Shown piece by piece: positions 10,691 through 40,416 of a stretch of DNA of 45,166 nt; position 1 is the stretch's first letter, and each line of letters starts with the position of its first letter. The notes under the pieces were generated by a model. The model was given only the letters and a program-made list of their open reading frames with translations, had not been told where the DNA came from and ran no database searches. A program made the translations under genes and the position numbers. The DNA is from a virus (Duplodnaviria > Heunggongvirae > Uroviricota > Caudoviricetes): the IMG/VR virus record IMGVR_UViG_646311924_000016, one strand, 5' to 3'.

Positions 10691-13600
10691 TCAGCTAATC
10701 GTGATGCCTGCAGTGGCTTTCTTCATCACCACAACCAGCAAATCGCTGATACTTGCTGTGGGATACCAGTTATTTACCAGCCATGCTGACACCGAAAACT
10801 CCAGTGTCATGTGACCGTGACCGGCAGGCATATCAATAACACCACTGTAAATCAGCGTATTATCCAGCGCGGTACGGTTATAAATTTCAGCACCGTTTTT
10901 CCGCACTATCAGACGGCATGAGGAGTAAATATCAGTATGCTCTTTCTCATGTTTAGCGCCGCTGAATGCCACCGCCGGAATAACAATCTGCCGGTCAAAC
11001 GGCTGATCGTCATAAACCCTGACGGTAATGGTTCCTGATGGCCACCGCTCCGGTGCACGGGAGTCCCGGGGGAAAGCTTTGCCCACTGTTTTAACGAGAT
11101 CGCCTTCAATCTGGTTCGCGGACAATTTTCCCAGAACCCGACAGTTCTCGTTAATCGTGACGTTGTTGAGCGTCCCGGAGTTCGCATTCACGTTACCGCT
11201 GATATCGGCATTTTTCGCCGTCAGCCGCCCGTCCGGTGTCAGGGAAAATGCCGGAGGATTACCGCCGCTGGTAATGGTGGGAGCCGTCAGATATTTCAGG
11301 AACACTTCATTCATAAATATCTGATCGCCCTGACCAACAAACATCGGCTTTGTGTTGCCATTCGCAGGATTAATCATCGCAATCCTGTCTGCCGCCAGCA
11401 GCACCTGACTCTGCATTCCTGCTGGCGTATTCTCAATACCGGCACCGATACCCGCAATATAAAGGCGTCCGTCCTGCATCTGCTGCAGTTTCACGGCCCA
11501 CATGCTGTTCAGGTTATTATTTGTATCAACCTGAACTTTCTGTATCTGCTGGATTGCCGCACTCTGATTTTCCAGTTTTTTATTGACGGTCTGCGTGATT
11601 TCATTGCTGACATTCGTAATGGACGTCCTGATTTCAGCCAGGTCCGGCGCAAGCTGACCGTTATCAATCTGCGTCCACAGCTCCTGGGCCAGATGTGTTT
11701 TCCCGATTTCTCCTTTGAAAAAATCCAGGTAACCTTCCGCATCATCGCTCGCCCGACCGACAGCCTCCACGAATGCCGATTTGCCAACAGTATTCACACT
11801 GCGGATATAAAAATAATAATCATGGCCCGGTTTGATATTGATACTGGCAGCTATCCAGTACAGCGCCGAGCCAAGATAGCGGGCTGCGGTTTCAACCTGC
11901 CTGATATCCGCAATCCGCTTTTCCGAGAACCAGAACTCAAACTGTACCGTCGGGTCATAAACGGCAAGATGCGGCGTGGCGGTTATCTGAAAATAGCCCG
12001 GCGTCAGCTCAATCCGCGACGGTGCTGCCGGTGCGGCAATCCGGAAGGTGGTGGTGGCAGGTTCACCCTGCTGGCCATAGCTGTTTATCGCCCGCACCGT
12101 CAGGGTGTATTCCCCGAGCGGCAGGCCGCTGAAACGGTGCTCCGTGTCTGCGGTGATGGCGGTGGTCACCAGTCTGGCATCCGTTCCCTTACCACTGGTC
12201 AGGCGCAGACTGAAGCGCACGCCCTTCACCACCCGCGGCGTGTCCCATTTAGCCTGCGCCAGATACTGGCCGTCAGCTGCACTCACCTCCACCGTCAGGT
12301 GCTGTACTGCCGGTGGGATGACGCTGTTCAGGGAACCTGACTGCGGCTCAAAGCGGGCACCGTTATCCACGATGGCTTCTTTTTCCGGTACGTGCTGCAC
12401 CGCCGTGATGGCAAAGGTGCCGTCCGTGTTTTCCCGGACGGAGACACAGCGGAACAGGCGACGACGCAGTGACGGCAGGGAGAGTCCCCATACACCGTAT
12501 GTCTCCACACCATCAGGCAGGGTGCTGACCTGTATCCGGTCCGGCGCGGGGTGTGCAGTGATGGCCACGCTCACCGGCTTACCGCTGCCGTTAATCAGGT
12601 TCACCGTGGCGGCACCTGTCTCCGGCAGGGTCACCTCACGGTCCAGTGTCAGGGTGCGGCTGGCGGCATCAATGGACAGGACACGTCCGCCGGTCATGGT
12701 CCCGGCATAGTCGTTATCACAGATTTCAATAATGTCACCGGGTGTGTGACGCAGCCCCTGTGACCCGAGCGTGAAATCCACCGTCTGCGTTTCCAGCAGT
12801 CCGGTCTTTATCACCCACAGCCCGGCACGGTGGGCCTGACCGCGACTGGTGCAACCGAACGCATCCATCTTCAGCAGGTTGCGCCCGTAGCGCAGTATGG
12901 CTTCCGGGTCTTCCACCAGTTCCGTGGAGGTCTGCCAGCCGTTCTGCGGGTCGGTGTAATTCACCTCCACCGCCGTGTGGCGGTCCTTCAGGGCGCTGAA
13001 GCTGTAGCGAAACCCCACGCCGTTATCATCCACCACCACATCGCAGTTGGTGTACGGCCACACCACATCCGACGGGCGGTCCTGAACGAACGTCAGCGTC
13101 TGGCCGTTCCATACCGGCATACAGCGCATCGCCGAGCAGAAATCACTGAGAACGTCCCACGCCTTACGCTGTTGTGACAGGTACGCATTAAAGGTCATCC
13201 GCGGCTCTGTGCCCCCGAAACCATCCGGGACCGTCTGGTCGCAGTACTGCCCGATGGCATACAGCGCCCACTTGTCCACATCCGCCGCCCCCAGACGTTT
13301 TCCCATGCCGTAGCGCGGGTGAGTCAGCATGTCCCACAGACACCAGGCCGGGTTGTTGCTGTATGCCGGTTTCAGACTGCCGTCCCAGATACCACTGTAC
13401 GTGCGTTTTTCCGGGTCATAGTTTGACGGCACCTGGATGATGCGACCGCGGATATGGTAGTTCACCGTCATCTGCTGGCCGCCGAACTGCTCCGCATCCA
13501 CCTGCAGCCCCACAATGGCCGTGTTCGGGTAGCACTGTTTCACATCGATGATTTCGGTGTATGACGACCACAGCGTCTTATTCTGCAGCTGGTCCGTGGT

Positions 13601-14164
13601 GCTGTCCGCCGTCTCCCTGACCATCCGGATGTTAAAGGGCCGGGGAGGCAGATTATCCAGAATCACCGAGGCCAGGAACTGTGAGGTGGTCTTGCCGTTA
13701 ATGGTGACGTCCTTTTCTGTCACCCAGTTACCGTTACGCTGTAACTGAATCAGCAGGCGGACGGATGCCGGGTTACGGTCACCCTTTGAGGTGGTCTCCA
13801 CCAGTGACTGCACCCCGAAGGTAACCCGCAGGCGGTCAATGTTCGCGGACGTAATGGTGCGCGTCACCGGTTTTGCCTTCGTCACTTCCACGCCCAGTCC
13901 GGTTTCAGCTCCGGAGGACTCAAAGCCTTCCGGTGGTGTCTGCTCCTGCTCCCCGGCGCGCCAGACCGCGGTCACACCGTGTATCACGGGATTGCCGTCC
14001 GTGTCCGTCAGTGGGGTTTTGTTCACCAGAATACTCTGCAGTCCCTTCACCGGACCTTCTATCGGTCCCTCACCAATCGCATCAATCACACTCATCATCT
14101 GCGTGGATTTGAGATTATCCTTCGCCTCACGAGGCGTGTGTGCCTTACCGCCACCTTTTCCCAT
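10691..14164 (-). CDS. J: Host specificity / central tail fiber protein J
   Basis: 1157 aa; N-terminus '[42 protein letters not shown]' matches recalled lambda J; size and position after I. Confidence 0.95.
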
Positions 14165-14369
14165 ACAGCCTTCCCCTGAATAAATTAACCGCCACTTGCC
14201 ATTCCGTACAGAAGTCGGATATCCTTCGCCCGAAAAGCATGAAACACATTTCTGCCATGCTAAAGAGAAACCCCGGTATCAGCAGATACCGGGGTTTTCT
14301 TTCATGCCCACCGATAATCCTGTTGGTTAAAACCGGTAATGGCATAAAAATTCTGAATATCTTCACATT

Positions 14370-14397
14370 TTCACACACTGACTGTGGCGCTTATAAT
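14370..14397 (+). promoter_or_regulatory. Near-consensus sigma70 promoter in the I-J intergenic region
   Basis: -35 'ttcaca' (14370-14375), 16-nt spacer, -10 'tataat' (14392-14397); faces away from J toward a terminator 100 nt downstream. Confidence 0.4.
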
Positions 14398-14404
14398 TTC
14401 GCTG

Positions 14405-14502
14405 CGTTAGTGTTTTTTTGCCCGAGTAACAAAAACAACTCCTTAACATTGATCTTCATTTGTCTGTCCCCGCAGCTCCGCGATCACTGCGGGATTTTTT
14501 TA
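14405..14502 (+). ncRNA. Candidate small RNA (about 95 nt) defined by promoter and intrinsic terminator in the I-J intergenic region
   Basis: Promoter at 14370-14397; terminator hairpin cccgcag / ctgcggg (14469-14475 / 14487-14493) followed by T-run to 14502; CA-rich single-stranded segment 'aacaaaaacaactcc'; no ORF with RBS. Unverified. Confidence 0.3.
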
Positions 14503-14506
14503 TGTT

Positions 14507-15187
14507 TTATCCCTGTCGCCCGACAACCACGACCGTTCCGCCCCCGCCTTCATCACGGGTGCTGATGTCCTGGGATATACGGCGGGAGCCAACCAGCATT
14601 TCCCCGTAAGGCACCGGCATCGGGTTCCCCTGGGCAATCATGTTATCCAGCGAGGAAAAGTACGTGTTCTGTCTGCCGTTATCCGTTGCGCGGTAATCCG
14701 GTGTTTTTGCCTTCGGGGCCAGCATCTGGGCCACACCGCCCAGAATCATGCTGGCTCCAAGTGAAAACAGCATCGTGGTGGCAGAAAAACCACCGGCTGC
14801 CAGGGCTGAACCCCATAACGCCATTGATGCCCCGGCAGTGAAGAAAGAGCCCACGATGGCTGCCGCCCCCAGCACAATCTGCAGTCCGCCCTTTCCGGCT
14901 CCGGCCAGTCGCGGCACAATATGGATGACCGTTCCCTCACCCAGCTGTTCGTGAAGACGGGCGTACACCGCCTCCGGTGCCGTGTCCTCACCGCGAATAC
15001 GTATCTGGTACCAGCCTTCGTTCATCTGACGGCGGAATCCCGGCATCTGCATCGACAGGGCACGGATGGCTTCCGCTGCCGTGTTCACATACAGGCTGAG
15101 GCGGCGGCCAAATCGTTGTAAATCCCCGTGAAGGCAGATACGTGCCAGTGGCGGTGACGCCAGGCTGAATGCGTTCGTCGTTGCCAT
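14507..15187 (-). CDS. I: Tail assembly protein I
   Basis: 226 aa; 'MATTNAFSLASPPLARICLHGDLQRFGRR...' and C-terminal membrane-like region match recalled lambda gpI. Confidence 0.9.
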   Translation of the reverse strand: MATTNAFSLASPPLARICLHGDLQRFGRRLSLYVNTAAEAIRALSMQMPGFRRQMNEGWYQIRIRGEDTAPEAVYARLHEQLGEGTVIHIVPRLAGAGKGGLQIVLGAAAIVGSFFTAGASMALWGSALAAGGFSATTMLFSLGASMILGGVAQMLAPKAKTPDYRATDNGRQNTYFSSLDNMIAQGNPMPVPYGEMLVGSRRISQDISTRDEGGGGTVVVVGRQG

Positions 15188-15828
15188 TTTTCGGAATACC
15201 TCTCCCGTTTACTCAGTTGTTCAGGCAGATGGTGAAGCAGCTCACCGTTGCCGCAGTATATGGCGGCATGATTGGCCACCGATGCGCCAAAGCAGCACAG
15301 CAGGATATCGCCAGGCTGTGCGGAAGGCAGGGAAATCCTGTAAAAACCAGTCGCCTCCATATTGCCCAGGTACAGGTTCTGACCGTTGCGCCACCAGTCA
15401 TCCTCACGCTCAAAATCCGGCATATCAATTCCCGCCAGATGGTAGGCATCCCGGAACAGCGTGTAACAGTCCGTCACCCCGTGCTCAAAGCGCCGTCCTG
15501 TCAGATGTGGCACACAGCGGAATTTGTGAATGTCACCCCGGCAGACCAGCCACCAGGGCAGTGCGCTTTTTATCTGCAGCCGCCGGTCAGCCTCGCTCAG
15601 CCAGGGCAGCCCACCGGGATGACTGTGGACCAGTGCCACAATCTCCCCCTGCATCTCTGCCCGCAGCCAGTCTTCCGGTGCGATACGAAAATACGCCTCC
15701 GGCTCTGCAGAAATATTCACACAAGGGATATACCACTCCCCCTCCGGCGTGCTTATCACGAAGCCGCACGACTCCGCAGGCACACACCGCCGGGCATGCG
15801 CCAGAATCGCTGATTCTGTCTGTGTCAT
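15085..15828 (-). CDS. K: Tail assembly protein K (JAB/MPN plus NlpC/P60 peptidase-like)
   Basis: 247 aa; 'MTQTESAILAHARRC...ALVHSHPGGLPWLSEADRRLQ...' matches recalled lambda gpK; overlaps the start of I as in lambda. Confidence 0.9.
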   Translation of the reverse strand: MTQTESAILAHARRCVPAESCGFVISTPEGEWYIPCVNISAEPEAYFRIAPEDWLRAEMQGEIVALVHSHPGGLPWLSEADRRLQIKSALPWWLVCRGDIHKFRCVPHLTGRRFEHGVTDCYTLFRDAYHLAGIDMPDFEREDDWWRNGQNLYLGNMEATGFYRISLPSAQPGDILLCCFGASVANHAAIYCGNGELLHHLPEQLSKRERYSEKWQRRTHSAWRHRHWHVSAFTGIYNDLAAASACM

Positions 15829-40357: not shown

Positions 40358-40416
40358 TTTTCTGGTGACGTTTGGCGGTATCAGTTTTACTCCGTGACTG
40401 CTCTGCCGCCGTTTTT
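40358..40416 (+). ncRNA. dicF: DicF small RNA (cell-division inhibitor sRNA) with terminator
   Basis: 'tttctggtgacgtttggcggtatcagttttactccgtgactgctctgccgccgttttt' matches the recalled 53-nt DicF sequence; located upstream of dicB as in Qin. Confidence 0.75.

Follow-up and report, generated by a model that had tools for sequence, protein, structure and literature searches.

The spacer between the tail genes I and J of a Caudoviricetes virus (IMG/VR record IMGVR_UViG_646311924_000016; 45,166 nucleotides, the whole of which we call the window) holds a plus-strand unit, positions 14370-14501, that is very probably the pasB gene. PasB is an Hfq-dependent, trans-acting small RNA (sRNA), an RNA 'moron' that lambdoid prophages have between I and J and that is read against the tail operon. 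The element has already been described, and the window contributes a further copy of a known sRNA rather than a new one. An earlier note, made from the letters of the window, had proposed a promoter-to-terminator regulatory sRNA on the plus strand at this place. That proposal was right, and the name it could not give is PasB.

The match to a known prophage sRNA comes from a northern probe and from the spacer of enteropathogenic Escherichia coli (EPEC) O127:H6 strain E2348/69. The published PasB probe, AATCCCGCAGTGATCGCGGAGCT (Table S6, PMC8550237), is the exact reverse complement of window positions 14474-14496 (23/23), with 0 matches in shuffles. In E2348/69, PasB (E2348CN_0006) is an 83-nt RNA encoded on the minus strand at NC_011601.1 1466343..1466261, in prophage PP6 between E2348C_1436 and E2348C_1437 (PMC8550237). 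The I-J spacer of that strain is identical to the window from ~14344 to 14520, the sole difference lying at 14445. In E2348/69 the gene has the tail assembly protein (I) on one side and gpJ on the other, is encoded on the strand opposite to theirs, and has its end 6 nt from the stop codon of I; the same holds in the window. Its directionality is listed as '(> <) >' in Table S6 (PMC8550237). The two loci share 82 of 83 nucleotides, the promoter, the terminator, the slot, the strand and the probe match. They differ at the seed base 14445 and in the J-proximal module, which is shorter and unrelated in E2348/69.

Much is known of the E2348/69 allele. PasB was detected there by northern blot, its stability depends on Hfq, and its partners were mapped by ligating and sequencing interacting RNAs (RIL-seq) (Pearl Mizrahi et al. 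2021, Sci Adv, PMC8550237). Its level is higher under 'non-activating' conditions (overnight static lysogeny broth (LB), 37 C) than under 'activating' ones (mid-log Dulbecco's modified Eagle medium (DMEM)). With 37 RIL-seq interactions it ranks 15th by partner number in the EPEC Hfq interactome, and it is the 3' partner (RNA2) of the chimera in every PasB row examined, as expected for an Hfq-bound sRNA. The log2 fold changes of -6.8 and -2.4 given for pasB in Table S2 are wild type versus delta-hfq comparisons. Chimera counts are highest for E2348C_2648 (71), the napF 5' untranslated region (70), map (67) and yhhX (57), followed by the nlpD-rpoS region (56), hflX (55) and fabR (50); other partners are bfpB, raiA, espC, caiF, tolC, rplX, gshA and cesD2 (all PMC8550237). 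The distribution of PasB was surveyed by Zhu, Shabalina & Storz 2026 (bioRxiv 10.64898/2026.05.13.724894).

Rfam holds no PasB model; a search of the whole window with Rfam 15 gave no spacer match at gathering thresholds, and at E <= 10 on 14100-14600 it returned only sub-threshold, terminator-shaped matches. The RNA sequences of the PasB region were not found in the main texts of the literature. Table S6 gives homologues in enterohaemorrhagic E. coli (EHEC) for PasA and PasD and none for PasB (PMC8550237), and the tail region is not mentioned in Tree et al. 2014 (PMC4104026).

Table 1. Positions of the features discussed, in window coordinates
Feature	Position	Strand	Remarks
Tail tip / host specificity gene J	10691-14164	minus	1157-aa ORF (open reading frame); a 100%-identical stretch is annotated as host specificity protein J in phage ASU11
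ASU11_gp9c, 66-aa hypothetical protein	14145-14345	minus	ON416862.2; crosses the hairpin and overlaps the J start
'Long' J-proximal module	14165-14343		orphan 179-bp block; missing from E2348/69
Bidirectional terminator-like hairpin	14259-14306		perfect 13-nt arms 14268-14280 / 14285-14297, flanked by an A-run and a U-run
CRP-like site TCTGA-N6-TCACA	14352-14367	plus	9/10 of consensus TGTGA-N6-TCACA; just upstream of the -35; speculative
pasB promoter	14370-14397	plus	-35 TTCACA 14370-14375, 16-bp spacer, -10 TATAAT 14392-14397; 11/12 positions match
Predicted primary PasB transcript	14404-14501	plus	98 nt; start G14404 inferred, 7 nt past the -10 hexamer
Equivalent of the published 83-nt PasB	14419-14501	plus	indel-free alignment anchored on the I stop codon; 82/83 bases identical
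(A-R-N)4 motif AAC-AAA-AAC-AAC, AACAAAAACAAC	14428-14439	plus	the CA-rich segment of the earlier note
Inferred seed AACUCCUUAACAUUGAUCUUCAU	14437-14459	plus	PasB nt 34-56 = AACUCCUU[C/A]ACAUUGAUCUUCAU (AACUCCUUCACAUUGAUCUUCAU); best duplexes cluster here
Allelic position	14445	plus	A in the window, C in E2348/69; position 27 of published PasB; inside the seed
PasB intrinsic terminator	14469-14501	plus	arms 14469-14475 / 14487-14493, CCCGCAG/CUGCGGG, 11-nt loop, then A + U7
Tail assembly gene I	14507-15187	minus	226-aa ORF; labelled tail tip assembly protein I in ASU11

Promoter, transcript and terminator

The near-consensus promoter reported in the earlier note, TTCACA-16-TATAAT on the plus strand, is present, and so is the terminator downstream of it (stem 14469-14493 and U7; Table 1). 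Three promoter-like sites are found in the region against 0.6 +/- 0.7 in shuffles. The pasB promoter has the same sequence in E2348/69, where PasB is expressed. Transcription would initiate from this sigma-70 promoter at about G14404 and would end at the intrinsic terminator, at U14501; the U7 corresponds to seven T at 14495-14501. The RNA so delimited has neither an AUG nor a Shine-Dalgarno sequence. The promoter-to-terminator unit without an ORF therefore stands as first proposed, and its predicted length is corrected from ~95 to 98 nt. The unit is antisense to the tail operon and convergent on I.

Apart from its terminator, PasB is predicted to be unpaired, with a body fold energy equal to that of shuffles (z -0.08). 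A 5' stem between 14411-14417 and 14431-14437 is not conserved among the aligned members of the family described below. The CA-rich segment that the earlier note saw in the RNA is real, and looks like an Hfq (ARN)n site, not like the anti-GcvB seed of an AgvB-type RNA. An A-R-N rule for Hfq binding has been reported (PMC4104026), and the AAC-AAA-AAC-AAC tract is a likely Hfq distal-face site. An (A-R-N)n tract and a Rho-independent U-tail, the pair of features of class II-like Hfq sRNAs such as ChiX and MgrR, are both found in PasB, and the 5' U-run, the (ARN)4 tract and the U7 tail together form a plausible Hfq-binding layout.

A CRP-like site lies just upstream of the promoter. Its half-sites are kept with three different N6 spacers in loci retrieved via the I protein, in which the -10 region varies. 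The centre of the site falls at about -44.5 from the predicted start, which is a non-canonical CRP position. As a candidate regulatory site, it might relate to the high level of PasB in overnight LB and its low level in DMEM.

A second plus-strand RNA is possible closer to J. A weak promoter, TTGCCA-18-TATCCT (9/12), is found at 14196-14225, and a putative RNA of ~75 nt from 14232 to 14306 would end at the hairpin of the J-proximal module (-31.9 kcal/mol, z -6.8). That module is missing from E2348/69.

Putative seed, partner mRNAs and the allele at 14445

We looked for the seed of PasB with 11 RIL-seq partners of our own choosing, picked for high chimera counts and narrow read windows, with the target regions taken from E2348/69. 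Duplexes were searched by windowed energy without accessibility, and PasB nucleotides are counted from the predicted start. The best duplexes cluster in one 23-nt stretch (Table 1). Summed over the 11 partners, the energy of this seed is -177.0 kcal/mol, compared with -130.7 +/- 7.5 for dinucleotide-shuffled seeds (0/40 as good); seven partners individually are matched by at most 2 of 40 shuffles. The seed of PasB has been placed, with no coordinates given, in an unpaired stretch upstream of the terminator (Zhu et al. 2026). The inferred seed lies in that area, is itself predicted to be unpaired, and holds an anti-Shine-Dalgarno-like UCCUU.

Chimeric read windows lie on or beside the start codon for 8 of the 11 partners (napF, caiF, tolC, gshA, trmJ, rpoS, yijD and RS14200, where yijD is downstream of fabR and RS14200 downstream of E2348C_2648). 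The predicted duplex itself is at or beside the start codon for five of them: napF, caiF, gshA, trmJ and yijD. With RS14200 and rpoS, PasB is predicted to pair best further into the message, ~50-70 nt downstream of the start. The napF duplex consists of 16 bp across the start codon (-25.4 kcal/mol), at the caiF start UCCUUCACA pairs with UGUGAAGGA, and the yijD duplex is predicted in the Shine-Dalgarno region. Most likely, the single-stranded seed at ~14437-14459 would bind mRNAs of the host, and horizontally acquired ones, at their ribosome-binding and start-codon regions, and such pairing would repress their translation.

The rpoS gene of E2348/69 is annotated as frameshifted in RefSeq (NC_011601.1 3101474-3102467), and 56 PasB chimeras lie on the first ~50 nt of its frame.

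The one base that separates the window from E2348/69 falls inside the seed. PasB and PasB-2 differ at position 27 (Zhu et al. 2026), which corresponds to 14445, and by its match at this single position the window copy is probably PasB-2. The change from C to A weakens the predicted duplexes with napF (-25.4 to -19.0 kcal/mol), caiF (-20.5 to -14.1), yijD (-17.3 to -10.9) and map (-18.8 to -15.1). The target set of the window allele is therefore probably shifted relative to that of the E2348/69 allele, on which RIL-seq was performed.

Several points weigh against reading the unit as a trans-acting PasB. All expression evidence comes from the E2348/69 allele. The published 5' end was estimated from coverage and band size and falls at 14419, which puts it 15 nt downstream of the predicted start; either the primary transcript is processed, after the U-run, or one of the two estimates is off. 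The partners were selected by hand and scored by a simple windowed energy that takes no account of accessibility. Two of them, tolC and trmJ, fit the seed poorly, and tolC has no seed duplex. It is the best E2348/69 duplexes that the A allele weakens. Finally, translational repression is a putative outcome of these duplexes.

The I-J slot and its family of RNAs

Genes I and J are identified by their annotated relatives, among them those of phage ASU11, whose spacer is 100% identical. The I protein matches Pfam Lambda_tail_I (E = 6e-16), and relatives of J carry the gpJ annotation in RefSeq. The spacer between them (14165-14506) measures 342 bp, so the ~340 bp of the earlier note is real. Its comparison with lambda needs adjustment: there I ends at 15444 and J starts at 15505, leaving a 60-bp gap, and the genes are close, not contiguous. 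Nor is the long spacer unusual, as had been thought. With the I protein as anchor we sampled 80 viral contigs, whose identity in I is 96% or more throughout, and found the PasB-type terminator directly after I in 79 of them; a long spacer is the rule in this phage group. The exact promoter word is found in 54 of the 80, and spacer lengths cluster at ~335, 230 and 846 bp.

The spacer of the window is widespread. By BLAST it occurs in 1,611 of 5,426 complete E. coli genomes. It is found also in PPompW-type, Stx-converting (Shiga toxin) and other phages, and in sequence type 131 (ST131) and other strains without the locus of enterocyte effacement (non-LEE strains). The pasB unit itself is kept in >1,000 genomes, at >= 99% identity in 901 records. 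Among the 70 matches listed, no feature is annotated over the spacer, the exceptions being overlapping tail-protein or hypothetical coding sequences in two phage records. Because PasB has no Rfam model and is unannotated among these matches, an annotation pipeline would miss it.

A 24-nt promoter word, TCTGAATATCTTCACATTTTCACA, retrieves at least 120 IMG/VR contigs; the invariance of the promoter in this set is partly by construction. Beyond IMG/VR it was found only in one contig of E. albertii and in two small, probably contaminant contigs. The promoter/sRNA sequence is carried by a 546-bp contig assigned to Asaia platycodi and a 3.4-kb contig assigned to Streptomyces flavalbus, most likely through assembly contamination.

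The loci so retrieved encode 33 distinct predicted RNAs. Aligned, 24 family members share a 5' GCGUUA-U-run, an invariant AAnAA core, and UCCUU-like and AUCUUC motifs. The terminator stem is unchanged in 23 of the 24, the other having one A.C mismatch at one pair, and the RNAalifold consensus is the terminator alone, without covariation. The middle of the RNA and the length of the terminator loop diverge, which gives at least three body types. Type B has the body GUCGUGAYAUAAGAAUAAUUCCUUACAC... (L003, L006, L007, L023 and others) and type C the body CGGGUCAAUAAAAACAAAACUCC... (L005, L148). Both resemble PasB in the promoter block, the 5' GCGUUA-U-run, UCCUU, AUCUUC, the terminator stem and the position after I. 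They differ from it in the middle 40-50 nt, which are ~60-70% alike with indels, and in terminator loops of 4 to 16 nt. Type B occurs in Stx2c-converting phages and in ~650 E. coli chromosomes with a 90-95% identical spacer. Neither a published name nor expression data for these sister RNAs was found in the literature. O157:H7 genomes have 5-7 PasB-like places each.

The same slot can hold a protein gene. In 13 of the 80 I-anchored contigs (L149, L150, L152, L162 and others; loci L143-L222), the ~846-bp spacer contains sodC, which encodes a 175-aa Cu/Zn superoxide dismutase (Pfam Sod_Cu, E = 4e-32) in the orientation of PasB and with its own terminator. A type-B PasB-like body follows sodC, the canonical promoter being displaced. 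The earlier note had reasoned that its candidate would fall if the region were coding in related phages. This is not so for the RNA itself, and in some relatives sodC lies upstream in the same spacer. These sodC genes match the sodC-F1/F2 morons of E. coli O157:H7 (D'Orazio et al. 2008, PMC2569942). Unlike PasB, sodC codes for protein and displaces the PasB-type promoter, and the window has no sodC. The finding of sodC and PasB in one place marks the I-J spacer as a moron slot transcribed against the late operon.

Other insertions are seen in the slot. In L039 and in the Asaia contig, a mobile element is inserted in the pasB promoter, immediately past TTCACAAACTGA, and its end resembles that of IS629. 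In L163, a large insertion stands in place of the promoter-proximal spacer.

The J-proximal part of the spacer is a separate module. The 179-bp block of the window recurs in 1,441 E. coli records at 99% identity or more and lies between I and J in all matches inspected. Nothing similar to it turned up in the sodC-type, short-type and lambda spacers or elsewhere in the window. Being near-invariant in E. coli, the block offers no covariation signal. In E2348/69 and others an unrelated module of ~77 bp takes its place. The perfect 10-bp hairpin (14271-14294) of the earlier note exists, and forms the core of a 13-bp perfect inverted repeat that the A and U runs extend to ~20 bp. Folded as plus strand it has an energy of -28.7 kcal/mol (z -7.4), as minus strand one of -29.9 kcal/mol (z -6.5), and 0 of 200 shuffles are as stable. 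The hairpin has the shape of a bidirectional intrinsic terminator, a function that it may have. A promoter for a minus-strand transcript ending at the hairpin was sought, and none reached 9/12; by eye there are weak candidates only.

The short module contains an unrelated hairpin, CAGGCAYC...GRUGCCUG followed by UUGUUUUUGUG, on the I-to-J sense strand (L002 ~1425-1465), ~30 nt before the Shine-Dalgarno sequence of J. It exists in C-G and U-A (compensatory) versions, with some C.A and U.G intermediates. Both alternative modules thus have a sense-strand hairpin with a U-run ~30-100 nt ahead of the J start, in what looks like a terminator or attenuator conserved before J within the late operon. 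The J-proximal modules may insulate the moron and limit un-antiterminated read-through into J.

Alternative readings and significance

PasB could act mainly in cis, pairing or colliding with the late I-J mRNA during lytic growth and tuning J expression or mRNA processing, with trans activity secondary. At its I-J junction the late polycistronic mRNA holds a perfect complement of PasB, the end of PasB lies 6 nt from the I stop, the RNA has a fixed position directly after I in 79/80 contigs with a related I, and the terminator-like hairpins upstream of the J ribosome-binding site in both modules suggest that I-to-J read-through is controlled. However, PasB is abundant on Hfq in uninduced lysogens, where it is ligated to ~35 unlinked mRNAs as the 3' partner, and no chimeras with its own antisense are present in the PasB rows examined. 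In addition, the RNA body diverges strongly between phages yet keeps UCCUU and AUCUUC. Antisense complementarity in cis is independent of sequence, so a cis role does not need these motifs to be conserved; their retention fits selection by trans targets. We consider a mainly cis-acting PasB unlikely, though it is the alternative that survives best.

The CA-rich tract raises a second alternative, in which PasB is an AgvB-like anti-sRNA that would pose as a GcvB target and so sponge GcvB at its GU-rich R1 seed. The segment resembles the CACAACA-type GcvB target motif, and the window does contain a genuine AgvB gene at 37674-37735 (plus strand, 96.5 bits). Yet the best PasB-GcvB duplex, at -13.9 kcal/mol, is no better than those of shuffled PasB (-15.2 +/- 1.6; 24/30 as good), in a comparison of low power where AgvB itself gives 5/30. 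GcvB is not a partner in the PasB RIL-seq rows examined, and 14100-14600 has no Rfam AgvB/AsxR match even at E <= 10. The 98-nt length and the architecture of PasB also differ from those of the 51-60-nt anti-sRNAs. An anti-GcvB sponge is very improbable on these grounds.

AgvB and AsxR (Tree et al. 2014, PMC4104026; RF02702, RF02703) are like PasB in being prophage-encoded, Hfq-bound and located at moron sites against the late operon, and a CA-rich tract is present in AgvB too. They are unlike it in their length of 51-60 nt, their place downstream of Q/pR' and their sponging of core sRNAs, and PasB has no sequence or covariance-model similarity to them. AgvB is one of three window sRNAs that pass the Rfam gathering threshold, with STnc100 (37736-37926, minus, 143.3 bits) and DicF (40360-40411, plus, 72.5 bits). 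AgvB and STnc100 converge, with their ends adjoining at 37735/37736; Tree et al. 2014 describe this layout of convergent sRNAs at a moron site. STnc100 is related to PasD (Zhu et al. 2026). HnrS (EcOnc10-12), a 66-nt sRNA present in multiple copies in the late region of lambdoid prophages, binds Hfq, blocks the hha ribosome-binding site and has been reported, with few exceptions, from EHEC and EPEC (Poudyal et al. 2026, PMC13502914). Its authors describe it as a separate sRNA; the window spacer is found in ST131 and other non-LEE strains as well.

A third alternative is that the unit is a relic without function, for example the 3' leftover of a moron like sodC that was lost, or that promoter and terminator came together by chance. 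In 13/80 related loci sodC is indeed followed by a PasB-like body that lacks the canonical promoter, and insertion sequence elements interrupt the promoter in a few loci. With a promoter matching at 11/12 positions, a unit kept in >1,000 genomes, and an identical promoter and near-identical RNA that is expressed and Hfq-bound in E2348/69, this has hardly any probability left. Least probable of all is a small protein encoded by the spacer, either in a 141-aa plus-strand ORF (14140-14565) or in a 66-77-aa minus-strand ORF: such mechanical ORFs exist and one is annotated in ON416862.2, but both cross the 13-bp hairpin and are broken among relatives by 1-5-nt indels and by replacement of the left module, and the 77-aa minus ORF has no Pfam match and no Shine-Dalgarno sequence, overlaps the J start and is not conserved in relatives. 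Coding potential was rejected on the indels, the lack of a Pfam match and the module replacement, and the annotated ASU11_gp9c is probably an over-call.

With PasB retained as a trans-acting sRNA, the window gains a name, exact coordinates and a strand for it. Its partners include the virulence genes map, espC, bfpB and cesD2, and among core genes napF, the rpoS leader region, tolC, hflX and fabR/yijD. We tentatively suggest, as a possibility somewhat short of an even chance, that the I-J slot is a modular, 'seed-swapping' RNA moron, in which a shared and possibly regulator-controlled promoter, a 5' leader and a terminator carry different bodies (PasB-C, PasB-A, B and C). If so, each prophage would have a different set of post-transcriptional targets, and several paralogous regulons would operate side by side in EHEC genomes, where up to 8 places match. 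The A allele of the window would then be functionally distinct from the studied E2348/69 allele, and in type B there would be a sister sRNA still to be characterised. In addition, the family might have a cis effect on the late mRNA, at its I-J junction and in concert with the sense-strand terminator before J.

The element itself being already described, what remains of value is the seed polymorphism at 14445, the sister bodies that share its scaffold in prophages of the ST131 type and in Stx2c prophages and the slot shared with sodC, all of which bear on how prophages rewire host regulation.

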